Shown: positions 16,511 to 28,449, numbered from the stretch's first letter. The stretch is DNA of 64,000 nt from an uncultured Bdellovibrionales bacterium (GCA_964436855.1 CAYTED010000008.1:4158-68157), one strand, 5' to 3'. Numbers and translations are program-made. The notes: a model not told the origin generated them from the sequence alone.

Positions 16511-17371
16511 TTATGCAAATGTTTTTAACAGTTCAGTAAATGTTTCTTCTTCGAATGTATCTTGGTGGAGCGGTCTATCATTCGATCGAACAACGGTTTC
16601 GTACGGCTCTTTATCAGGATTTTTATAGATCACGCCAAGGGGCATTTTATCCGTTTCAAAAGCTTTTTCCATCGCCGCCATTCGATCGGTCGGGTCATAG
16701 GTTTCATCGAGCAGATAGGTATGTTCGGTAAACCATTGATACGTATTTACTTTATTGAAGACAACGCATGGCTGAAAAACATCGAGCAGCACGTATCCTT
16801 TATCCCAGAGAAGCGCCTGTTTGAAAATCTCTTTTGCCTGCTGAATATTTCCTGCATTTGCCCGAGCGACAAATGATGCGTCGAGCGATACCGCGACCGC
16901 AATTGGATTAAACGGGTCCAGAAGAACACCATTGACCTGTACCGGCGTCTGCAAGCCTTTTTCGGATGTCGGTGATGCTTGGCCTTTCGTCAGACCATAA
17001 ATCATATTGTTGTGCACGATATTTACAATACCGGAATTTCGACGAATGGTATGGACGAAATGGTTACCTCCTTCGCCATAAACACAACCGTCTCCGGATT
17101 CCGCAATCACTTTTAACTTTGGATTGGCAAGTTTGATTGCCGTTGCCGCCGGAAGTGACCTCCCATGCAAACCGTTAAACACATTCATACGAACATAGTG
17201 CGGCGTTTTGGCCGCTTGCCCGATACCCGATGTCATAACTATTTCTTCCGGCGAATACCCAAGTTCGGAAAGCGCCATCTTGAGAATAGAGAGAATGGGA
17301 AAATTTCCACACCCCGGACACCATGCAATATCAGTGTCATGCGGCATGTTAAATTTTTGTTGATCGGCCAT
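16511..17371 (-). CDS. korB: 2-oxoacid:ferredoxin oxidoreductase beta subunit (TPP-binding)
   Basis: [41 protein letters not shown] (TPP-binding motif). Confidence 0.85.
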
Positions 17372-17378
17372 ACGTCAT

Positions 17379-17401
17379 GATTTAAGATTTTTGATTTATG
17401 A
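17379..17401. repeat. Left arm of 23-bp inverted repeat bracketing the four-helix-bundle gene
   Basis: GATTTAAGATTTTTGATTTATGA, 22/23 identical to the reverse complement of 17785-17807; overlaps the stop codon of the enclosed ORF. Confidence 0.7.
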
Positions 17402-17788
17402 TTTTAGAATGTCCTTCGATTTTTTGATCAGACCACTCAAAAGCTTATGTGCGGTATTCGCCTGTTCTGCAATCTCATGAAACACTTCTTTTTGTAGATA
17501 TTCTATGTCTTTCGCAAGCAACAACTGATTCTTTAATTCCGTAAGCGATCCCTGTGCTATATAATAAAAATGAACTTTTTCTTTATATGTCTGCCGACCA
17601 AAACCTTCAGCAATATTGGAAGTTATTGAAATAGCAGCACGCCTCATTTGATCAACCAAAGAATATACCGCTTCCTTTGGAAACTTCTTCGTTATTTTAT
17701 ATATCATGATAACAAGCTTGTGTGACTCACTCCAAGCATTGAGATCAGTAAATGAGCGTATCTTTACGATTTCAGATTTCCCATTCAT
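17396..17788 (-). CDS. Four-helix-bundle protein (TIGR02436; 23S rRNA intervening-sequence protein / Avd family)
   Basis: Signature KFPKEAVYSLVDQMRRAAISITSNIAEGFGRQTYKEKVHFYYIAQGSLTELKNQLLLA. Inserted between korB and korA. Confidence 0.8.
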   Translation of the reverse strand: MNGKSEIVKIRSFTDLNAWSESHKLVIMIYKITKKFPKEAVYSLVDQMRRAAISITSNIAEGFGRQTYKEKVHFYYIAQGSLTELKNQLLLAKDIEYLQKEVFHEIAEQANTAHKLLSGLIKKSKDILKS

Positions 17789-17816: not shown

Positions 17817-19508
17817 TCATAGCTCCGCTATGATTTCTTCCGCTGAAAACGGTTCCCCGATATATTTCAAAATTCTCTGATCAGTCTTTACTTTTAATTC
17901 CTTCTCCAAGAGATCAGCAAACTGTCCCGTTGCATTGTTCTCAACCGTTACCACTCGTCTCCCGCGCTTGAAGTATTTTTTTGCATCGGGAGCAATTGGA
18001 TATACTTGAGAAAAATGGAGTACTGAACAGTCTTCCCCAAGAAGCTCTTTTGCTTCGAGCAGCACTCCTTTGGTCGAACCAAATGATACGAGAAGTGTTT
18101 TGCAGGATTTTTCATTTCCAAAAAAACTCGGCGGGAGCGCATCTTCCTTCAGTCCTGAGAGTTTCCCGAGTCGCTTGTCCGTCATTTTTTTGCGAAGATC
18201 GAAACTCTCGGTAATATGACCCTCCTCATCATGCTCGTCACTGTCAACCGAAACAATTCCTTCGCCGTACCCGGGAATACCCCGAGGAGAAACACCATTT
18301 TTGTCGGTATGGAGGTCATAACGTTTGTAGTCTTTTTTTGTCTTCACGGTATATGAGTGAATCGGGAGCTGCTTGAGGTCCTTGGGGTCGACAATCGCTA
18401 CCGAGTCGAGCAGGTACTGATCGGTCAGAATGAATACCGGAGACTGATATTTGTCTGCCATTTCAAATGCCTGCTGGGCACACACAAACATCTCCTCCTG
18501 ATCCCCCGGTGTAAAGATTGCCCGAGGAAATTCACCGTGTCCCGCATAGAGCACAAGATTCAAGTCTCCCTGTTCCATTCGTGTCGGAAGTCCCGTCGCC
18601 GGACCCGGACGCATACCGATATGGATCACCGCTGGAGTCTCGAGCATTCCGGAGAGACTCACCCCTTCGCACATGAGCGCAAACCCGCCGCCGGATGTTG
18701 TGACGATCGCGCGCGCGCCGGCATACCATGCTGCGACACACATATTGATCGCCGCGATTTCGTCTTCCGCCTGATCGACGACCATCCCAAACGGACCGCC
18801 ATTTTGTGCGAGAAAGGTGAGTAGTCCCGTCCCCGGAGACATCGGATACGAGGCGATAAAATTACATCCCGCCGCAAGCACACCGAGTCCGAGCGCCTGA
18901 TCGCCGGAGAGCAGGAGCTTTTCGTGCATATCGGTCGCCTTTGGAAGAGAAAGGTGGATACTCTCAGCGTAGGCGAGGTGTCCGCCGAGCGTGTATCCTT
19001 TTTCGGCAGCTTCGATGTTTTTCTCGACGACTTCTTCTCCCTTCCGAAGAAAACGATTTTTCAAAAATGTATGGAATTCCTCTTTTGGTGCCTTGAGAAA
19101 CCCAAGAATCACTCCGACCGCCACCGTTCCGGCGTATAGCGGACTTCCGATTTCATTGGCGATACTACTTATAGGAACATCGATAACATGATGCTTTGAC
19201 TGCACCACCTTGGTATCACCTAAAATAAGGGTCTTTGCACCAATGCGATCCTCCAAGTGAGGAATAACGTCCTTGTCGAGCGCAAATAAAATATCGATCC
19301 GACGCGTGTAAGAACGAGTCCCTCGAGAAGAAAGGCGGATCTCCGTTGAGTTTGAGCCGCCGCGAATCCGCGACATATATTCTTTCGACGCAAACACGCG
19401 ATATCCGTCTTTTTTCAAAACCGAAAGGAGCATTGCCTCCACCGTTTGAATTCCCTGCCCCGCCGCTCCGCCGATCACGATGGAAATATCTTTTGCAAAA
19501 TGCTTCAT
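17817..19508 (-). CDS. korA: 2-oxoacid:ferredoxin oxidoreductase alpha subunit with fused N-terminal gamma-like domain
   Basis: N-terminal IVIGGAAGQGIQTVEAML (gamma-type) followed by the alpha core (GDQALGLGVLAAGCNF, YPMSPGTGLL, AGARAIVTTSGGGFALM). Confidence 0.85.
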   Translation of the reverse strand: MKHFAKDISIVIGGAAGQGIQTVEAMLLSVLKKDGYRVFASKEYMSRIRGGSNSTEIRLSSRGTRSYTRRIDILFALDKDVIPHLEDRIGAKTLILGDTKVVQSKHHVIDVPISSIANEIGSPLYAGTVAVGVILGFLKAPKEEFHTFLKNRFLRKGEEVVEKNIEAAEKGYTLGGHLAYAESIHLSLPKATDMHEKLLLSGDQALGLGVLAAGCNFIASYPMSPGTGLLTFLAQNGGPFGMVVDQAEDEIAAINMCVAAWYAGARAIVTTSGGGFALMCEGVSLSGMLETPAVIHIGMRPGPATGLPTRMEQGDLNLVLYAGHGEFPRAIFTPGDQEEMFVCAQQAFEMADKYQSPVFILTDQYLLDSVAIVDPKDLKQLPIHSYTVKTKKDYKRYDLHTDKNGVSPRGIPGYGEGIVSVDSDEHDEEGHITESFDLRKKMTDKRLGKLSGLKEDALPPSFFGNEKSCKTLLVSFGSTKGVLLEAKELLGEDCSVLHFSQVYPIAPDAKKYFKRGRRVVTVENNATGQFADLLEKELKVKTDQRILKYIGEPFSAEEIIAEL

Positions 19509-19630: not shown

Positions 19631-19831
19631 TTATTCCGCAGACAATTCCTTCTTCACCACTTCGAATTCATTCTCGACTTCCTTGAGGCGAGATTTACTT
19701 TCTTTAATAAGAGCAACGCCTTCTTTTACCTTTTCAAGCGCCTGTTCAACATCGATTTCTTCCTGATGTTCAAACCATTCAGTAATCAACTCTAATTTCT
19801 TCAATGATTCCGACAATGATGCGTTTTTCAT
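19631..19831 (-). CDS. xseB: Exodeoxyribonuclease VII small subunit
   Basis: 66-aa helical protein. LKKLELITEWFEHQEEIDVEQALEKVKEGVALIKESKSRLKEVE fits the XseB pattern. Lies 5 nt downstream of the RT gene. Confidence 0.6.
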   Translation of the reverse strand: MKNASLSESLKKLELITEWFEHQEEIDVEQALEKVKEGVALIKESKSRLKEVENEFEVVKKELSAE

Positions 19832-19836
19832 ATGAT

Positions 19837-20835
19837 TTATCCATTTTTCGATTTATAGCCTGACAATTCCTGTTTCAGGGTATATGCATTTCCGTGAGAA
19901 AGCAACCCGATATATGAGGCAAATACCTTTTCATCGACATTCTTCCGAATATTCTGAAACATCTTCTTTTTGGTGATCGTGCGAAGTGTTCGACAATGAG
20001 GAAAGTGCACCCAACCGAGAAAATCCACTCCTGATGCCCATGTCTTTATGAAAATCTTCTTGTCATGGAGCGAAAGCTTCAGTTTTTCCGATAAAAAATG
20101 ATCCAGGTCAACAACAATATCCCGCAAATACTCTCCCTTCTCCGAAAAAATCACGAAATCATCGGCATATCGAATGTAGTGTCGGATTTTCAATTTCCGC
20201 TTCACAAACTGATCAAATTCATTCAGATAAATATTAGAGAAAAGCTGACTTGTCAGGTTCCCGAGAGGAAGTCCAACGCCCTTCATTCCTCTCGTTTCGA
20301 AGCTTCGAATGATCTTTTCCAAAAGAATGAGGATATCCTGATCTTCAATATGTCGCTTGAGAATTTCCAGTAATACGCTGTGCTCTATCGATGCGAAAAA
20401 TTTCCTAATATCACATTTCAATACAAAACATTGCCGAGTATTGTTTTTTGACACTCTTCGCGCGAATACCCGAAAACGATTGATTGCCCTCAGTGCTCCT
20501 TTTTCCTCCCTACAGGAATACGAATCAAATATGAATCGATCATCGAAATATGTTTTCAGAGACCGGTAGATGATATGATGGACGATCCTGTCACGAACTG
20601 CAGCTTTGTGAATATCGCGAGGTTTCGGATCTGAAACCCTGAAAGCCCAATATGATCCATGAGTATATTTCCGACTTTTCAAATCAACCTGCAATACGAA
20701 GAGATTTTCCATAAGACGCATTTCGAACTCCGCAACATCACTCTGTTTACGCTTCCCAGCAACAAATTTCTGCCACGCCGAAAACACGACTTCCAGCGAT
20801 GTGATATCATCATATTTGAGATCCAATTTTTTCAT
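19837..20835 (-). CDS. Diversity-generating retroelement (DGR) reverse transcriptase
   Basis: RT motifs PRDIHKAAVRDRIVHH (1), KCDIRKFFASIEH (2), the DGR-specific LPLGNLTSQLFSNIYLNEFD (motif 4 with SQ in place of QG), YIRYADDFVIFS (YxDD), GVDFLGW. About 330 aa, the size typical of DGR RTs. Confidence 0.9.
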   Translation of the reverse strand: MKKLDLKYDDITSLEVVFSAWQKFVAGKRKQSDVAEFEMRLMENLFVLQVDLKSRKYTHGSYWAFRVSDPKPRDIHKAAVRDRIVHHIIYRSLKTYFDDRFIFDSYSCREEKGALRAINRFRVFARRVSKNNTRQCFVLKCDIRKFFASIEHSVLLEILKRHIEDQDILILLEKIIRSFETRGMKGVGLPLGNLTSQLFSNIYLNEFDQFVKRKLKIRHYIRYADDFVIFSEKGEYLRDIVVDLDHFLSEKLKLSLHDKKIFIKTWASGVDFLGWVHFPHCRTLRTITKKKMFQNIRKNVDEKVFASYIGLLSHGNAYTLKQELSGYKSKNG

Positions 20836-20887
20836 TTTTTATTCCTATGAATACCCCCCCCCTCGGCTTTCCAGTATCAGCGTCAAG

Positions 20888-21244
20888 ATGCTCGCTTTCT
20901 ATACCGAGTGGCATGACATCCTGACGAGACATATCCCGAAGATCGAGCGCTATTCGATCGGCATGCGCATCGACAATCTTTTTTCAGGCATTCTCGAAGA
21001 CATCGCTCTCGCGCAATTTTCCCTTCCTGAATACAAAATCCCTTATATCAAGCGCGCTATCGGAAAGAATGATACGCTCAAATTCATGCTCTATGCGCTT
21101 TTCAATTTGAAAGGCATTGACGAGAAAAAATTCATTTCCCTTTCCGAAAAAACGGAGGAGATCGGTCGCATGCTCTATGGATGGAAATGCAAAATGGAAC
21201 AAAAACCGCCAGAGCGACAGTATTCCGGCGGAAAAAATTTGTGA
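20888..21244 (+). CDS. avd: Avd-like accessory variability determinant (four-helix-bundle family), divergent from the RT
   Basis: IPKIERYSIGMRIDNLFSGILEDIALAQ and C-terminal EKTEEIGRMLYGWKCKMEQK parallel the TIGR02436/Avd family. Compare PKEERYgLtsQlrRaavSI...EKIEEvkkMLiGli, and Bordetella Avd ...AEVGRILGSWIAR. The stop lies 3 nt before the TR. Confidence 0.5.
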   Translation: MLAFYTEWHDILTRHIPKIERYSIGMRIDNLFSGILEDIALAQFSLPEYKIPYIKRAIGKNDTLKFMLYALFNLKGIDEKKFISLSEKTEEIGRMLYGWKCKMEQKPPERQYSGGKNL

Positions 21245-21247
21245 GTA

Positions 21248-21371
21248 TCGAGGAGCACAGCACGCTCGTTCGAGTCCCAGTCGTTGTCCAGCCAATTCGC
21301 ATTCCGGTTGAACTTCGAGCCATTCCAGTTCGAGCGAGGCACATTCCAGTGGCCGTCCTTGTCACGCAACA
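21248..21371 (-). repeat. DGR template repeat (TR)
   Basis: 124-nt direct repeat of 21699-21822 with no indels. 15 mismatches, every one at a T on the plus strand (an A on the minus strand) in this copy. Conceptual peptide GHWNVPRSNWNGSKFNRNANWLDNDWDSNERAVLL is rich in AAY (Asn) codons. Confidence 0.9.
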
Positions 21372-21642
21372 TCGCGGGAAATACCATCCTCTCTATCCAC
21401 TGTCCAGCTCAATCGCGCACAGACTGTATTTCATTCCGTATCTTCAAATACGCGAGCATTTCCCACAGACTCACTTTTCTTTTTTTTCGAAAACGTTTTT
21501 CACTTTCCGTAGGAGATTCCGTTGGAAATTCCGAAAACGCCGTCTCGACACAAGAGGATGCTCCGGCGTACCCGAGCACCCATTCTCTTCTGCCTCTCTA
21601 TACTATCATGCGATCCTCAAAAAATTCAAAGGGCAAAGGGCA

Positions 21643-21659
21643 ATTCGCCTTTGGCGAAT
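21643..21659 (-). other. GC-rich hairpin about 38 nt downstream of VR (candidate DGR homing stem-loop)
   Basis: ATTCGCC-TTT-GGCGAAT, a 7-bp stem with a 3-nt loop, lying between VR/IMH and TR. Confidence 0.4.
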
Positions 21660-21691
21660 CAAAGAGCAGATTCAAAATTCAAAAGCAAAGG

Positions 21692-23935
21692 TCATTTCTC
21701 GAGGAGCACAGCACGCTCGTGCGAGCCCCAGTCGCTGTCCAGCCAATGCGCATGCCGGCCGAACCCCGAGCCATCCCAGTACGAGCGAGGCACATACCAG
21801 TGGCCGCCCTCGCCACGCAACACAGAACCAGGGCAGAAGAACCAATTCCCATCCTTGAGTTCCTGTGGTGTTCGATCAGGATTTTCAATCATCCATTTCC
21901 AATATTCGATACCGGGAATATGATGTGTGGCTCCGTAAGTACCAATGATATGCTTCATCACCTCGTACCGCTTCTTTCCGACAAATGCCGAGAGGTCCGG
22001 GATAAATACTTTCGCTCGCTCAAAATCAAGTCCTTGCGTTTCGGGATTGAGAGTGTATTCTCCGATTTTGTTTGCATCGATATCCTGTGAGAGCTGTTCA
22101 TAATCAAGCGCACTCGGGTTTTGAAATGCTGCTTCCTGTTTCGCATTGTTCACGATTTTTTTGCTCCACCACATCTTGAATGTCTCAAAGAGAAAGGGTT
22201 TATTTCCTTCCTTCAGTATCTCGATATCCAGATCCGCTGCTACATCCACTCCTTCCTTATCCACTTCACCACCCAAAAGATCTGCTACTGCACCTTTCAA
22301 ATCAGGAGAGAATTCTTTCATTTCTGCCAATTCTTTCAGTGTTATTATTCTTTCTTTTTTCGATCGTTCGATCGTAGCTTTGATAGCCACATCATCCCTC
22401 CCTTGCTTGAGCGCACTCACATCGAATATATTCTGTGGTAAACCAAGCTCTGCCGGCGTCACCGTTCGGAGAAATCCTTTCAGAGCGAAAATTTTTGCCG
22501 CCAATACGCGATCGCTTTCCGGATATTCCTTGAAGGTGATTCCAGTCTTGATCGCCTGATCAAGAAATTCTACGAATGAATTCCCCGGATTCAATCGCCG
22601 CTCCGTTCCCCATCGCTCCAAGATCGCCTCAACTGTTCCCTGTGTGCCCACAAACTTCTTCAGTCCCGGCTTCTTACCTGAAGCATCCTTCACGCCAATG
22701 AGCTGCGCTGTCGCATTGCGCACCGATGGTTCATAGTATGCAGCCTGAATTTCTTCCATAGCCTCGCAGAATTTCGGCAGCGTCGTTTCGAGATCATAGT
22801 CCGATAGCATGATACTTCCATCGCGATCCATCAATCTTGCCTTCATGATATCAAATGCCTCATCCTTCGGCGTGTAGAGGATTTCGAGATTATTCTGCTC
22901 GAATTCTCGGGCGATTTCCGGCGGGAGATCCTGCCGTTCTGGATTTTTTTCAGACTTCAGATTGGCTGTAAAAATCATCTGGAATCCCGGTTCGATACGA
23001 ACGTCTCCATTTCCTGGGATGTTGATTATATCACCTACCTTCGCATTTGCCACGCCTTTCATAAACACCATAATATCCTTCGGGAGCGCCGTGAATTCAT
23101 CGAATATTACCGTTTTTCCCTCTTTGATCGCTCGCGCCAAAGGACCGTAGATATCCACGGTCTCTATCGCGCCATGCTCGCCCCTGGCACGAATCCTGGT
23201 CTTTCCCCAAATATGTGATTCCCGCGTCTGCGGCGTACAATACACCATCTCAGCGCGCTTGCCAGTAAAGTGTTCAGCAGCATATCGTGCAAGCGAAGTT
23301 TTTCCGGTTCCCGTCGGTCCATGGAGAAACATCGGTTTGCCATGAATTATGCGCTTTCCGATCTCGCTCAGGTACTTCTCTACGGATGGTGTATGAACGA
23401 TATGCCCTTCTTGGAAGAGGTCGCCACGGAAATCCATCAATTCAAACATCCTCCATTCCGTCGGATGATCCTTTTTTACCTCTTTCAGTCGAGCGAGAAG
23501 TTCTGGCTTTGCTTGTCTAATCTTCTCAAGCGACCGATCAAGAGCCATGATCGGCCTTGCAGCCTGCTCACGCAGGCAATATATCTCGAAATTCGTCACA
23601 CCGCGAAAGTCTTTTTCCAAGGAAGCAAACGCCTCATATACTGATCCGATCTGTTTTCTGATCGATTCCTTGTCTATGCGCGCTGAAAGCTTGTCACCTT
23701 CCGATTCCAGTCTCTGTCTCTGCAAAAATTCCTTCGCCTTGGAAAAAGCCAACTTCTCACCTTCGCCTTTTGGAATATGAAATTCTTTCGCCTGCTCATT
23801 GAGATCTGCTTTTGATTCTTGGAGATCGGACCGCAATACATCTGGAACACCCTGATTTCTCGCTTCGCGCAATGCATGACGGACCGTTTTCCGCTCTTCG
23901 GAAATCCGGTGAAAATTTTGTATTGGTTTTTCCAT
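21692..23935 (-). CDS. DGR target protein: cytoplasmic MoxR/CbbQ-like AAA+ (AAA_5) ATPase with C-terminal C-type-lectin/FGE-fold variable domain
   Basis: No signal peptide. Walker A FLHGPTGTGKTSLARYAA, Walker B VIFDEF. C-terminal GNWFFCPGSVLRGEGGHWYVPRSYWDGSGF... is encoded by the VR. Confidence 0.85.
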   Translation of the reverse strand: MEKPIQNFHRISEERKTVRHALREARNQGVPDVLRSDLQESKADLNEQAKEFHIPKGEGEKLAFSKAKEFLQRQRLESEGDKLSARIDKESIRKQIGSVYEAFASLEKDFRGVTNFEIYCLREQAARPIMALDRSLEKIRQAKPELLARLKEVKKDHPTEWRMFELMDFRGDLFQEGHIVHTPSVEKYLSEIGKRIIHGKPMFLHGPTGTGKTSLARYAAEHFTGKRAEMVYCTPQTRESHIWGKTRIRARGEHGAIETVDIYGPLARAIKEGKTVIFDEFTALPKDIMVFMKGVANAKVGDIINIPGNGDVRIEPGFQMIFTANLKSEKNPERQDLPPEIAREFEQNNLEILYTPKDEAFDIMKARLMDRDGSIMLSDYDLETTLPKFCEAMEEIQAAYYEPSVRNATAQLIGVKDASGKKPGLKKFVGTQGTVEAILERWGTERRLNPGNSFVEFLDQAIKTGITFKEYPESDRVLAAKIFALKGFLRTVTPAELGLPQNIFDVSALKQGRDDVAIKATIERSKKERIITLKELAEMKEFSPDLKGAVADLLGGEVDKEGVDVAADLDIEILKEGNKPFLFETFKMWWSKKIVNNAKQEAAFQNPSALDYEQLSQDIDANKIGEYTLNPETQGLDFERAKVFIPDLSAFVGKKRYEVMKHIIGTYGATHHIPGIEYWKWMIENPDRTPQELKDGNWFFCPGSVLRGEGGHWYVPRSYWDGSGFGRHAHWLDSDWGSHERAVLLEK
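21699..21822 (-). repeat. DGR variable repeat (VR) at the 3' end of the target gene
   Basis: Counterpart of the TR. Encodes GHWYVPRSYWDGSGFGRHAHWLDSDWGSHERAVLL, so every difference from the TR peptide falls at a TR-adenine codon (N to Y/D/G/H/S, K to G, D to G). The last 20 nt (GC-rich, 21699-21720) are identical to the TR (IMH-like). Confidence 0.9.
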
Positions 23936-23946
23936 AATGTTTGTTT

Positions 23947-24567
23947 TTATTCCTCACTCACACTTATTTTCTTGAGCACGGACTGAATTGTTTCAATATC
24001 CGCTTCGAACCCCGGACGAAATATCACGGATTCCGTATAATCGATATCCTCAAAATATGCGAGTGCCGATCGGAATATCTTTTCATTAAATTCACCTCCG
24101 AATATCTGCTTCGACTTTTCTATTACCTGCTTCAAAGAATACTGTTTTGAAAGAATAAAAAAGAGGTCGACATAATCCTTCCATTTCGATCTCCTTCCAA
24201 GCGCATATGCCTTCATAGCCGAGAGCGTCAACACATCCGCAATATGTATCGTGCCATCAAGAGCGATATCCGCTTTGAAAGGGAATGGGTATGACAAAAA
24301 AGTCATCTTCACTCCTTTTACGACCACCGTATATTCACTATTATTTTTTACCAGCACTATGAAGTTCCGGTCTACTTCGGAAATCTTTTTCCGAAGATCA
24401 GCAACATCCAGCTCCCCATTGGTAAACAGATCAAAATCGATCGATTCGCGATGACCAAGCTGCAATGCGATAGCCGTTCCGCCACACAACGTAAAATCCT
24501 TCTCCATCTTTCTTAGAAGTGGCAACAGTGCTTGCTGCGAAGGGGAGAGTATTTCTTTATGCAGCAT
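23947..24567 (-). CDS. AbiEii/AbiGii-family nucleotidyltransferase toxin (DUF1814)
   Basis: FTLCGGTAIALQLGHRESIDFDLF matches the AbiEii N-terminal NTase motif (GGTAL...R.S.D.D). 206 aa. Confidence 0.7.
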   Translation of the reverse strand: MLHKEILSPSQQALLPLLRKMEKDFTLCGGTAIALQLGHRESIDFDLFTNGELDVADLRKKISEVDRNFIVLVKNNSEYTVVVKGVKMTFLSYPFPFKADIALDGTIHIADVLTLSAMKAYALGRRSKWKDYVDLFFILSKQYSLKQVIEKSKQIFGGEFNEKIFRSALAYFEDIDYTESVIFRPGFEADIETIQSVLKKISVSEE

Positions 24568-24826
24568 AGCGATTGAAATAGAGCTGAAAAAAATTCTTTA
24601 TTTCCGGTCGATAATTCGTCCTCTGCATATCTGAACGCTTTCTGAAATCTTCTGCAACCTTTTCTTTTCCCAAAATAGAGATCAATCCCTGCACATCCTC
24701 CCATGTTCCATAATTGAGAACGTGTTCTACAATAGACTCTTCCGACAATCGCGCTACATCTGCAACATACCAGACAAGGTATGATCTCTTTTCAATAAAA
24801 TCTCGGAGTTTTTCCTGTTGATTCAT
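24557..24826 (-). CDS. Small protein overlapping the AbiEii toxin start by 11 nt (putative cognate antitoxin/partner)
   Basis: 89 aa with translational coupling to the toxin gene; no confident family assignment. Confidence 0.35.
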   Translation of the reverse strand: MNQQEKLRDFIEKRSYLVWYVADVARLSEESIVEHVLNYGTWEDVQGLISILGKEKVAEDFRKRSDMQRTNYRPEIKNFFQLYFNRYAA

Positions 24827-24888: not shown

Positions 24889-26808
24889 CTATACATCAGC
24901 AAGATGTTCTTGCAATACATCTGCAAGAATGTTTGGGAGTTTTTCTGCTGTTTCCGCAAGCTTGGCCTCTGGAGCATAGGTTGTCAGGGCTGGCTTGCCA
25001 TCTCTCGTAATGCCGATACCGATAACGATCACCCTTTGCTTTCTCAAGGTTTTCAATACTCTCTCAACGCGCGATGGATCATCACTCTCTCCATCCGTAA
25101 AGATAATGACGATCTTTTTCAGTTCTCCTTCCGTTATTAAATATTCCCTATCCTGATCAATGCTGCGTGCGATGGTTTCAAGCGGCACAAAATCAGTCGT
25201 TGATCCGGAACACGTTCCGATTTTCGCTGCTGTTTCGATTCGTTCTTTTTCCGAAAGATCATTCGAGAGACTCTTCAAAGGAATACTATCTTCCGAAGAT
25301 GACTGAAAGGAAAATATTTCCGAACATATCTCCAGCGGCTTTTCCAGGTCATATGATGATTCCTTGGCAAGATCGGAAAATTCCTTGAGTGCTTCCATAA
25401 ACAAAATAACCGCCTTCTGCTGCTCGAGTTTCTTTTTCCCTTCCATAGATGTCGAGCGGTCGCATACGAGCGTGATTTCCACTCTCCCGAAGCGTTTTCC
25501 TTTTTGGATTCGGATATCATGCGTCTCCCATGCTTTCGGCTCGAAATCTCCCGCTTTCGCCCGCACTACAAGCTCGACCGGGTCCACCAAGTCCTCACCC
25601 TCCTCCACTGGATAGCGGGGCGCCGGAACTTCTTTTCTTCGCCTTGAAATAATCCGGGAAATCAGTTCCCGCAAGTCTTCAATAACACTCCGATTCGTCT
25701 CCGGATTGATGATTTTTCTCATTGCATCTGCGATAGATCGATACCGCTTCAGATCTTCTTTTTTCACTCCGAGTTTTTCTGCATATTCCTTGTCCGCCCG
25801 GTCGAGCGGATCACCCTGCGCTTCCTGCCACTTCTTGAATGCCTCCTGCTCTTTCTCTACTGGAACAGCATTTGGAACGCGCTTGTCGGCACGGTCATAT
25901 GCCTCTTTGAATGTCTCGTTCGGATTCTTTTTTTCTTTGCTGTTTTTCTCTTTTCCGAATTTTTCTTGCTTCTGTCCTGAAGGAGAAGACTGCGACGACT
26001 CGCCTTGCTCTCCTTCTTTTTTATCATCACTTGATTTTCCATCTTTTCCTTTCTCGTCTTGCCTTTCTTCTTCCTCCTCATCCTTCTTGAGCAATGCTTC
26101 CACCTTCGGCCAGACGTATCTGTCCTGTAATTTCAAACGAACAGACATCGGAGTGCCAGGATCCGCCATAATCTGAAAGAGTGATCTACCATCCTTTGCG
26201 CGTATATTTTTCAATTCATCGATCGCTTCGCGCACTTCTGGAGCAACCACACATGTCTCATCCAGCACTCTTGCCTCACGAAGAATCGCTTGTGGAAGCT
26301 GCAAATGCTTCGGCTCTCCTGAGAGATCAACATTCGGAAAAAGATCCGTGCGATACATATCTTTTTCAATCGCCGCGTATCCTTCGTCTGTTCTTCGTAT
26401 CACCGTTGTATTTTCTCGGATATCCGCGATGCAGTTATCCATCACAGAATATGCTTTCGATGCTGTGATACGTGAAAGATAATTCTGGTACACCTTCTCG
26501 CCACCCTCTTCGGCAAGAAGTTGTTTTTTCTCAAGGAAATGCTCAATCTCATGCAAGGATGCATAGGTCGTTTTCTCATCGGACAATCCTTTTTCCTTGT
26601 AGAATCGCGCATTAAGATAGATATCGTCTGTCTCAAGATCGAACGCGAAAGTATTCAGATTCGCCGGAGCTGGCTTCACATTCACCCTTCCTCTCGCATA
26701 GTGTTCGAACACATCGCGATTCGCTTCGAAATGACGTAAGGCTTCTTCGTGTTCCGATTGATGAACCTCTTTCGGATTGTTCGGTATAGTGAAAATTTTC
26801 TCTCCCAT
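24889..26808 (-). CDS. vWA-domain protein with N-terminal HExxH metallopeptidase-like region (DUF2201-type MoxR partner)
   Basis: HEIEH motif near the N-terminus, acidic/Lys-rich low-complexity middle, C-terminal vWA with MIDAS DRSTSM...IIFTDGESDD...VIVIGIG. Confidence 0.65.
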   Translation of the reverse strand: MGEKIFTIPNNPKEVHQSEHEEALRHFEANRDVFEHYARGRVNVKPAPANLNTFAFDLETDDIYLNARFYKEKGLSDEKTTYASLHEIEHFLEKKQLLAEEGGEKVYQNYLSRITASKAYSVMDNCIADIRENTTVIRRTDEGYAAIEKDMYRTDLFPNVDLSGEPKHLQLPQAILREARVLDETCVVAPEVREAIDELKNIRAKDGRSLFQIMADPGTPMSVRLKLQDRYVWPKVEALLKKDEEEEERQDEKGKDGKSSDDKKEGEQGESSQSSPSGQKQEKFGKEKNSKEKKNPNETFKEAYDRADKRVPNAVPVEKEQEAFKKWQEAQGDPLDRADKEYAEKLGVKKEDLKRYRSIADAMRKIINPETNRSVIEDLRELISRIISRRRKEVPAPRYPVEEGEDLVDPVELVVRAKAGDFEPKAWETHDIRIQKGKRFGRVEITLVCDRSTSMEGKKKLEQQKAVILFMEALKEFSDLAKESSYDLEKPLEICSEIFSFQSSSEDSIPLKSLSNDLSEKERIETAAKIGTCSGSTTDFVPLETIARSIDQDREYLITEGELKKIVIIFTDGESDDPSRVERVLKTLRKQRVIVIGIGITRDGKPALTTYAPEAKLAETAEKLPNILADVLQEHLADV

Positions 26809-26817
26809 ACTTTCTTT

Positions 26818-28449
26818 TTATATTATCTCTCGAATCTCTGCTCCGATCGTTCCGTCCGATACCTGAATTTCTATTGTATCACCTTTCTTTGCTTGTTTGA
26901 CGCTTCGGATAAGCTTTCCGCCACTTCGCACCAGGCTGTATCCAAGTGACAGTGCGCGGTTCGGATCGTATTCACGGAGTTTTTCTTCCATACGAAGAAT
27001 CGATTCATAGTATTTTTCTCGCGCGGTTTCGAAACATGAAACCATATTTTTCTCGAATTCCCCAATTCGTTCGGCAGAAGATTTGAGGGAAAATCGGATA
27101 TGTTCGAAGGATCGAAGAAGACTTTCTTCCGCCCGAACAAAACGCTCCTTGAGTTTTGGGAATGCGAGAGACAGTATTTCTTGGGATCGGGAGAACGTAT
27201 GCCTCACATTTAAAAGCTCCCGCTCAAATCGCTCGGCCAGTATTATTTCCGCGTGTCGCACCTCTTGCCTCGCGCGTTCGAACGGTTCGCGAATCGTCCG
27301 AGCGGTCGCGGTCGGGGTCGATACCATAGAGTCCGCCACAAGCGCCGCGAGCGTGATATCTTTTTCGTGTCCGATACCAAGAAGCGTCGGGATTTTGGAA
27401 TTCGCCACCTCGCGCACGAGCGTTTCATTATTGAATGCCTGCAAGCTCTCAAGACTTCCTCCGCCACGAGTTATCACGAGGAGATCATATTTCTCCGGTG
27501 TTTGGCTGAAGAACTTGAGTGCTTCGAGAATTTCAAACACGGCTTTTTTCCCCTCGACACTCGTCGGATAAAAATCAACCGAAAGACCAAGCATCCCGAG
27601 ATTCATCGTAAAGTCTCCAATGGCCGCCCCCTCGCGAGACGTAATAAGCGCGATCCGCTCGGGAAATTCTGAAAGTTTCCGCTTTCGTTCCGGCGCGAGC
27701 AACCCTTCGGTTTCCAATTTTCGCAAGAGCTCATCGTACGCTTTCTTGAGCGCGCCTTCGCCCGCATATTCGATCACCCCGACCTTCAAAGAGAGTCTCC
27801 CATTCGGCTTGTACATTTCCGGAACACCCTCAACAATAATTTCATCCCCCACCGAAAGACGTATCCCTGACACCTGATACTGATAACGGAACATAAGACA
27901 ATTCAGTGTACTTCCATCCTCCCCGTCTTTGATCGTAAAATAGACGACGCGATCACGCTCATCGACGCTCGATACTTCGCCACGCACCCGTGCCGCCATA
28001 CCAGAGAGCTCCATATTGAGCGCATCGAGAAATTGGGAAACGGACAAGGTATCAGGTATTGGATATGGGGTATTGGAAATTTCCTCCTCCCCTCCTTTCA
28101 AGGGAGGGGATTGAGGGGAGGTTTTCATTTCAGACTCAAGCCCCTCCCTACCCTCCCCTTGGAAAATGGAAGAAGAAGAGGTATGTTCGTTTATAATCTT
28201 CAAAATCATCTTCCCATACTTTCCAAATTTCGCTTCCTTAATTCCCTTCACGCCCAAAAGCTCTTCTTTTGTTTTCGGAAGGACGCGCGCGATTTCTTCG
28301 AGTGTCGCATTCGGAAGCACGCGGTACTGTTCGACTCCCTCAAGTCGAGCCTGCTCTCCGCGCCACTGTCGCAGTGTCTGAATCAAGTTCTTCATCATAA
28401 GACATAGTATACCAAAAAGCCCCACGACTCGCGCGGGGCTTTTTCCCAA
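26818..28449 (-). CDS. xseA: Exodeoxyribonuclease VII large subunit with N-terminal HRDC-like extension
   Basis: OB-fold plus catalytic core (VRGEVSSVDERDRVVYFTIKD, ITSREGAAIGDF, ITRGGGSLESLQAFNNE, IGHEKDITLA). N-terminal roughly 140 aa (LRQWRGEQARLEGVEQYRVLPNATLEEIARVLPKTKEELLGVKGIKEAKFGKYGKMIL) resembles an HRDC domain. Confidence 0.8.
   Translation of the reverse strand: MGKSPARVVGLFGILCLMMKNLIQTLRQWRGEQARLEGVEQYRVLPNATLEEIARVLPKTKEELLGVKGIKEAKFGKYGKMILKIINEHTSSSSIFQGEGREGLESEMKTSPQSPPLKGGEEEISNTPYPIPDTLSVSQFLDALNMELSGMAARVRGEVSSVDERDRVVYFTIKDGEDGSTLNCLMFRYQYQVSGIRLSVGDEIIVEGVPEMYKPNGRLSLKVGVIEYAGEGALKKAYDELLRKLETEGLLAPERKRKLSEFPERIALITSREGAAIGDFTMNLGMLGLSVDFYPTSVEGKKAVFEILEALKFFSQTPEKYDLLVITRGGGSLESLQAFNNETLVREVANSKIPTLLGIGHEKDITLAALVADSMVSTPTATARTIREPFERARQEVRHAEIILAERFERELLNVRHTFSRSQEILSLAFPKLKERFVRAEESLLRSFEHIRFSLKSSAERIGEFEKNMVSCFETAREKYYESILRMEEKLREYDPNRALSLGYSLVRSGGKLIRSVKQAKKGDTIEIQVSDGTIGAEIREII

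Follow-up and report, generated by a model that had tools for sequence, protein, structure and literature searches.

In the diversity-generating retroelement (DGR) of Bordetella phage BPP-1, with the order mtd-VR, avd, TR, Sp and brt, sequence is transferred adenine-specifically from a template repeat (TR) to a variable repeat (VR). In the ribonucleoprotein of this element, Sp pairs with the 3′ end of TR to form a template:primer duplex and, 2 nt further, with a segment just 5′ of TR, a duplex termed ‘cPRT Stop’ (preprint 10.1101/2023.10.23.563531). Among the DGRs of Patescibacteria, or Candidate Phyla Radiation (CPR), architecture B3, TR-(avd)-RT, accounts for 90% of the set of Wu et al. 2018 (PMC5758913), where RT is the reverse transcriptase gene. 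The VR class UVR4 is found there on Midasin/AAA proteins, with its fold left open (PMC5758913), and the AAA-CLec/AAA-ATPase target is described as the commonest CPR type in a statement of Dore et al. 2024 that cites Paul et al. (PMC10907252). Most RTs from CPR fall into a separate clade, distinct from the one that serves VMAP systems (PMC10907252). Here, a DGR and its flanking genes are described in a 64,000-nt stretch of contig CAYTED010000008.1 (GCA_964436855.1, positions 4158–68157, from an uncultured Bdellovibrionales bacterium), which is referred to as the window and numbered from its first nucleotide. The RT and target genes, both repeats and the template RNA are encoded on the minus strand, and avd on the plus strand.

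The element is very probably an intact chromosomal DGR of the Patescibacteria type, ordered target/VR, leader, TR, avd (inverted) and RT. An initial annotation of the same DNA had called a complete DGR, and this holds: the RT, an Avd homolog, an adenine-only TR/VR pair and a VR at the 3′ end of the target gene are all present and intact. Nothing essential separates it from the CPR B3 DGRs, with which it shares the inverted avd between TR and RT, nor from the CPR AAA-target DGRs, in which VR likewise lies at the C-terminus of a ~750-residue AAA (Midasin/MoxR-like) protein with Patescibacteria homologs. It is a further member of a known, already surveyed class, to which the initial annotation had not assigned it, and as a DGR one more example. 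The less ordinary part is the template RNA, seemingly a rearranged version of that of the Bordetella phage, and it is this RNA architecture that merits follow-up.

The RT (332 residues, 19837–20835) matches Pfam RVT_1 (3e-21). Its closest solved relative in the PDB is Bordetella bRT (8ub7, E = 1.6e-39), far ahead of the next match, a group II intron RT (3.9e-18). The RT motifs listed in the initial annotation were also recovered, with LGNLTSQ at residue 191 and YADD at residue 223, in addition to KPR at residue 71. In the alignment to 8ub7, the bRT template/dNTP contacts R74, I76, G182 and Q187 are conserved, and I181 is replaced by leucine. The avd homolog (118 residues, 20888–21244, plus strand) is antisense to the RT, TR and target; it matches Pfam bAvd (8.8e-7) and NCBIfam DivGenRetAVD (5e-10), and all 31 aligned orthologs match Pfam bAvd, the best at 4.8e-16. 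The family assignment of this open reading frame (ORF) beside TR thus stands, whereas its plus-strand, inverted position had been overlooked. PADLOC matches at the locus comprise only the generic RT and an AbiEii protein. The 52-nt divergent intergenic region between avd and RT (20836–20887) contains a homopolymer at 20854–20862 (C9 on the plus strand, G9 on the RT strand). In relatives, this tract is G10 (locus L003), G9 (L008), G7 plus G6 (L004) or interrupted (L002), and it could act as a slipped-strand switch for expression of RT or avd.

A repeat search of the window identified one direct repeat, TR (21248–21371) and VR (21699–21822), each 124 nt, ungapped and 88% identical to the other. 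Base-by-base comparison gave 15 mismatches and no indels, in agreement with the initial annotation, and every mismatch lies at a plus-strand T, i.e. a minus-strand A. Of the 28 TR adenines, 15 are altered in VR (coding-strand replacements G 10, C 3, T 2), compared with 0 of the 96 non-adenine positions (hypergeometric p = 4.7e-12); the adenine restriction claimed earlier is upheld on realignment as well. VR forms the final 41 codons of the 747-residue target ORF 21692–23935, as had been proposed. Read in frame, all TR adenines occupy codon positions 1 or 2 and none position 3, yielding 17 variable codons, 8 of them AAY, and ~1e16 possible proteins. Thirteen codons differ between TR and VR, rather than the 10 counted at first, since D>G, K>E and D>G, all 5′-terminal, were missing from the peptide given in the initial annotation. 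The homology breaks off sharply at either end. The identical, GC-rich 3′ end noted earlier spans 22 nt (64% G+C), and the flanks diverge directly past it (GAAATGA after VR, TACTCAC after TR). With these 22 nt identical, any discrimination of VR from TR would have to reside in the flanks; identical segments of this kind (the initiation of mutagenic homing sequences IMH and IMH*) have been noted for some DGRs (PMC5758913). No further VR-like copies are present in the 64-kb window.

For comparison, 80 genome loci were fetched by target alignment and 80 metagenome loci by the RT, and their genes were mapped with tblastn. The target stop codon and TR are separated by a 327-nt non-coding stretch that shows blocks of conservation even among loci with proteins just 50–70% identical. 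Within it lies a structured leader of ~220 nt, 5′ of TR, with strong covariation. A promoter-like extended −10 element (TGaTAGTAT, 21600–21608) aligns as TGnTAnnnT in five of six loci compared, with CG replacing TG in L004, and the start site of the TR RNA is inferred to lie near it. Farther upstream, 40–65 nt downstream of VR, a terminator scan found one or more hairpins (21632–21659), which may represent either the terminator of the target gene or a DGR inverted repeat; L003 and L004 have a covarying hairpin downstream of VR, and L002, L008 and L017 lack one.

The 5′ domain of the leader (21492–21581), defined by conserved blocks, consists of the hairpins H1 (21556–21581) and H2 (21492–21541) and an invariant CGAGAC (21542–21547); 22 of the 24 pairs predicted for H1/H2 show compensatory changes across 36 loci. 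The 3′ domain (21363–21469), defined by RNAalifold and covariance model R1, contains the long-range, 12-bp helix P1 (21455–21466 with 21374–21385), P2 (21436–21453) and P3. The RNAalifold alignment included 29 of 40 leaders, with the divergent subgroups (L033–L043, L065 and L066) left out, and supported P1, P2 and P3 with compensatory changes in 20 of 23 pairs. In the aligned cells of these helices, 92.9% are paired, versus 67% in shuffles and ~40% with the partners slid, and 181 are double changes, versus 52; none of 500 shuffles reached the observed level. The 3′ strand of P1 ends 1–12 nt ahead of the TR/VR homology (2 nt in the window). Pairing of the leader segments CAGUGG and GAGGA with TR-internal sequence was also considered, and was dropped as no covariation is seen in L002.

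Model R1 scores the window leader at 65.3 bits (E = 2e-15) and identifies 84 sites in related loci, 25 in genome loci and 59 in metagenomes, all of them on the RT strand and just 5′ of TR. No R1 site was found in the unrelated loci L069–L081 or elsewhere in the window, and the covariation is kept in the 59 model hits. An Rfam search of the locus gave no match at the gathering threshold or at E up to 5, including to RT-10 (Bordetella Sp). Some AAA-target DGR loci (L033, L036–L038, L040, L042, L043 and L059) have a different leader with no R1 match; these loci mostly also lack a hairpin plus U-run after TR.

A further helix, P0, connects the leader to the other side of TR. Its 5′ strand (GUGAGU, 21469–21474) is separated from P1 by 2 nt (CU), and its 3′ strand (ACUCAC, 21241–21246) begins 2 nt past the end of TR and overlaps the avd stop codon. 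Across loci, 6–12 nt that begin 2–5 nt past TR form a helix with the leader immediately 5′ of P1. This pairing was assessed with position-restricted, weighted and permuted tests of partner and register. With their own partners, the leader segments score 15.7, versus 12.45 ± 0.37 with permuted partners (0 of 2000 permutations). In register, 11 close loci have 78% of positions paired versus 63%, and 16 double changes versus 6.6 (0 of 500). An unconstrained search for the longest helix was barely above the null, the flanks being A-rich and U-rich.

Seventeen nucleotides past TR, a terminator scan detected a GC hairpin (21206–21231) followed by a U-run (21200–21205). It lies within the last avd codons, and nearly all related loci have a GC hairpin plus U-run 10–17 nt past TR, with differing stem sequences; the element at 21200–21231 looks like an intrinsic terminator for the TR RNA. 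Taken with the leader, these features suggest a ~390-nt RNA that would be transcribed from the extended −10 element near 21600–21608 and end at the hairpin and U-run. Its leader would fold into H1, H2 and the three-helix domain, with P1 abutting the 5′ end of TR and P0 joining the leader 2 nt upstream of P1 to the 6 nt that begin 2 nt past TR. We infer a mechanism in which P0 and P1 correspond to the primer and stop duplexes of the Bordetella type: P0 would be the template:primer duplex that places RT-Avd for the start of complementary DNA (cDNA) synthesis at the TR 3′ end, and P1 would be the stop for that synthesis. The cDNA, randomized opposite adenines, would then replace VR, so that 17 codons (~1e16 variants) would be recoded on the C-type-lectin-like tip of a NorQ/CbbQ-like MoxR ATPase that may work with a von Willebrand factor A (VWA) protein (see below).

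On this basis, the Patescibacteria DGR RNA may be a circular permutation of that of Bordetella, with the ‘Sp’ module placed in the ~220-nt 5′ leader of a separate ~390-nt non-coding RNA that ends inside the convergent avd; this reading is tentative, and we rate it somewhat short of an even chance. The element shares with BPP-1 a homologous RT, an Avd partner, adenine-specific TR-to-VR transfer and two helices that bracket TR, one a 3′-end duplex and the other a 5′-segment duplex, 2 nt apart on the partner strand. In contrast to BPP-1, avd is inverted and downstream of TR, TR and RT are parted by the antisense avd with no TR-RT spacer, and the strand that pairs with both TR flanks is located upstream, in the leader. 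The locus also differs in having no Rfam RT-10 (Sp) match, an IMH and IMH* that are identical for 22 nt, and a cellular host with a cytoplasmic target instead of a phage tail fibre. If correct, the permutation would explain both the absent TR-RT spacer and the inverted avd between TR and RT (type B3), and the permuted RNA would be a compact, portable template RNA.

No description of the leader RNA, of P0/P1 or of the terminator was found in the literature searched, which did not cover Paul et al. 2017. In the preprint on the Bordetella ribonucleoprotein, the scan reached no farther than 40 nt upstream of TR and 100 nt downstream of it (10.1101/2023.10.23.563531), and would have missed the partner of P1 because of the 40-nt upstream limit. 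The covariation-backed RNA offers a concrete model of cDNA priming and stopping in the commonest CPR DGR type, which is biochemically unstudied, and suggests that the Bordetella helix geometry can persist with a different strand connectivity. The architecture may help in the search for TR RNAs and in the design of compact DGR mutagenesis tools.

Several observations weigh against this interpretation. At 6 bp in the window, P0 is a short helix, and its surroundings are A/U-rich; its register varies between subgroups, and a slide of +2 scores fairly well too. The sequences that define P1 were pre-selected for a P1-like helix, whereas P2, P3 and the independent model hits were not, and the unselected P2 and P3 covary as well as P1. 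Downstream stop duplexes have been described for some CPR DGRs (Handa et al. preprint), a possible conflict with an upstream-only model. As to the components and their activity, the Avd protein taken alone is below the curated cut-offs for both bAvd and DivGenRetAVD and finds nothing meaningful in the PDB by sequence or by profile. The only other copy of the locus found (Logan SRR12229868, by exact RT look-up) has an identical VR, and a metagenome scan with the RT gave 576 relatives, the nearest of them 59% identical. An alternative account takes the leader as a cis-regulatory or stabilizing 5′ untranslated region (an attenuator or protein-binding element), with priming downstream of TR as in Bordetella and P0 a by-product of the A-/U-rich flanks. 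The short length and low complexity of P0 and the near-null naive helix search fit this account, as does the resemblance of the hairpin just 3′ of TR to the ‘Avd-binding stem-loop’ reported downstream of TR in many DGRs. It is less easily reconciled with the partner test, in which none of 2000 permutations reached the observed score, with the clear compensatory pairs of P0 (AAUGAAGC/GCUUCAUU, AAAUAAGC/GCUUAUUU and UAAAGAGU/ACUCUUUA) or with the bracketing of TR by P1 and P0 within a few nucleotides. Moreover, in loci of the window type, P1 and P0 are 2 nt apart on one strand, like the Bordetella duplex pair, and only ~17 nt separate TR from the hairpin, after which the antisense avd follows. 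A purely regulatory leader is considered rather unlikely.

The same locus could be a relic, in which the TR/VR pair records past homing and diversification has ceased. The searches for near-identical copies of the locus gave none with a different VR, and some homologous AAA-target loci have lost the RT or keep only fragments of it (L013, L016, L019 and others). Here, however, the element retains an intact RT, avd, TR, target ORF and leader RNA (65 bits), and the absence of any difference at the 96 non-adenine TR/VR positions indicates no drift since the last homing. In addition, an orthologous cluster at 90% identity (P0030) contains eight 748-residue proteins without a single difference in the first 703 residues; in the final 45 they all differ, with variation at 20 sites within this segment; other ortholog clusters at 90% identity likewise have their variation concentrated in VR. 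The protein sequences of the P0030 cluster are the only direct evidence of ongoing diversification, which is restricted to VR. Decay of the element in the window is thus judged quite improbable, and active or recent homing is plausible, recent homing being argued from the zero non-adenine differences together with the intact parts. Far less credible still is that the repeat arose by ordinary duplication or gene conversion and that the RT derives from a group II intron or retron, even though the best NCBIfam model for the RT is a group II intron RT/maturase (136 bits, against a cut-off of 300). Mismatches confined to adenines (p about 5e-12) oppose a plain duplication, and the RT is far nearer to bRT than to any intron RT and lacks a maturase or endonuclease extension. 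Group II intron or retron identity was rejected on the short RT (just 332 residues) and on the lack of any Rfam match to an intron or retron RNA. With an avd gene present and the same arrangement at more than 60 loci, this explanation is already refuted by the adenine pattern, the bRT affinity and the recurring layout.

The target protein (747 residues, 21692–23935) consists of an N-terminal helical region (176 residues), a MoxR/NorQ-like AAA+ module (~22826–23398) with an AAA_5 domain in which Walker A and B are intact, a linker and a CLec-like domain (21695–22231) with VR at its C-terminus. In its AlphaFold model (pLDDT 88), a long stretch of helices precedes the AAA module, which is followed by a disordered linker (residues 543–567) and a compact domain at the C-terminus. 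The best superpositions of the AAA module are on CbbQ and on NorQ, the latter from a structure with the NorD VWA domain, with TM 0.72–0.77 and E = 7e-12. The model of the C-terminal domain (pLDDT 97) gives weak but consistently CLec-type matches, and the tip of the target may be a very divergent C-type-lectin-like domain. The VWA-domain protein (639 residues, 24889–26808, minus strand) matches Pfam VWA (3e-11), has an intact metal-ion-dependent adhesion site (MIDAS) motif DRSTS and a charged linker, and its N-terminal half is unrelated to the NorD/CbbO type. Since no hydrophobic segment was found in the target or in the VWA protein, both look cytoplasmic.

The superposed AAA module, the intact Walker A/B motifs and the adjacent VWA gene with MIDAS parallel NorQ-NorD and CbbQ-CbbO, and by analogy a hexamer of the ATPase probably acts together with the VWA protein. 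The target differs from NorQ/CbbQ in the added N-terminal helical region and the DGR-diversified C-terminal domain, and the VWA protein from NorD/CbbO in its N-terminal half and charged linker; unlike the NorQ-NorD and CbbQ-CbbO loci, this locus has no nitric-oxide reductase or Rubisco genes nearby. A second parallel is found in the VMAP ternary conflict systems (PMC7159879, PMC10907252), which combine a MoxR ATPase, a VWA protein and a DGR-diversified lectin-fold domain, and in which a sensor role has likewise been proposed for the variable domain (Kaur et al. 2020, PMC7159879; Dore et al. 2024, PMC10907252). In contrast to the VMAP systems of multicellular bacteria, the variable domain here is fused to the ATPase and not to the VWA protein. 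The cassette shows no gene for VMAP, a peptidase or a TIR effector, nor a third VMAP component with a peptidase, cyclase or adaptor effector, although no search with a VMAP profile was made. A cytoplasmic sensor or remodeller role in conflict systems has been proposed for related MoxR/VWA/DGR systems (PMC7159879, PMC10907252), and a role as a diversified intracellular ligand sensor or remodeller in the cytoplasm is plausible, if speculative, here. The combination of an ATPase with a hypervariable tip, a VWA partner and a DGR would point to a cytoplasmic, ATP-driven machine for diversified recognition in bacteria with tiny genomes.

At least 279 Patescibacteria proteins belong to the target family; they are ~750 residues in length and frequently carry the name MoxR-like ATPase. 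The homologs are labelled Moraniibacteriota and Patescibacteria, and the exact protein of the window is already present in NCBI. Within the family, sequence entropy alternates between a near-invariant scaffold (W, G, VP, R and L) and peaks located exactly at the TR AAY codons. A cassette of VWA, AAA-target, TR, inverted avd and RT recurs among the loci (tblastn); the VWA gene is found upstream of the target in some of them and downstream of the RT in others. The avd gene is inverted in all 103 related loci that have both RT and avd, and the TR 3′ end abuts the avd stop codon across related loci. A-biased TR/VR pairs occur at 68 loci, with 1411 of 1508 pooled mismatches at TR adenines. In target-anchored loci of at least 12 kb, a VWA gene is adjacent in 21/25 and an RT is present in 16/25, some having RT fragments only. 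AAA and VWA genes are never present in the RT-anchored metagenome loci (RT identity 55–59%), whose VR-bearing ORFs mostly have no Pfam domains; the RT/avd/RNA module thus serves several target families.

Variants of the cassette were also observed. In AAA-target/VWA loci L013, L016, L019, L021, L029, L032 and L045, there is no RT within 8 kb, or only fragments, reflecting either decay of the DGR or an RT that works in trans. Extra small genes that encode the VR domain only (query residues ~570–747) are found in L004, L009, L013, L014, L015, L017, L019 and L032, and several of them match the same TR as the main target; with these genes, some relatives have two or three targets, compared with one in the window. 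Proteins P0105, P0163–P0176, and P0083, P0095, P0102 and similar ones share this AAA N-terminal module, but their C-terminus is different and longer, ending ...LGFRPLVVFSSTK. This C-terminus resembles the classical CLec ‘GFR’ VR and is variable within its cluster, which suggests that VR domains are swapped. Many public contigs stop inside or just past the AAA-target gene (L027, L028, L030, L031, L034, L050, L057, L058 and L062), as would be expected of assembly breaks at a hypervariable or multi-copy region.

In the window, the 7-kb cassette from RT to VWA splits xseB (19631–19831) from xseA (26818–28449), so that VWA, DUF6922, AbiEii, target, avd and RT lie between xseA and xseB. No xse genes were found beside the cassette in any other fetched locus, and the cassette looks like an insertion, as its genomic position is not conserved. 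The xseA product carries an N-terminal HRDC domain. An AbiEii-like toxin gene (23947–24567, minus strand; Pfam, PADLOC) and a DUF6922 gene (24557–24826, minus strand; Pfam) are inserted between the target and VWA genes, and the closest relatives L002 and L003 lack them; AbiEii homologs are located near DGR cassettes in L015, L056, L063, L066 and L083/L089. Outside the cassette, a gene at 17396–17788 (minus strand) encodes a 130-residue 23S-rRNA-intervening-sequence/four-helix-bundle protein (PF05635, 1.6e-38), which belongs to the Avd superfamily, yet is not the accessory gene of the DGR; it sits between genes for subunits of a 2-oxoacid:ferredoxin oxidoreductase (16511–17371 and 17817–19508).

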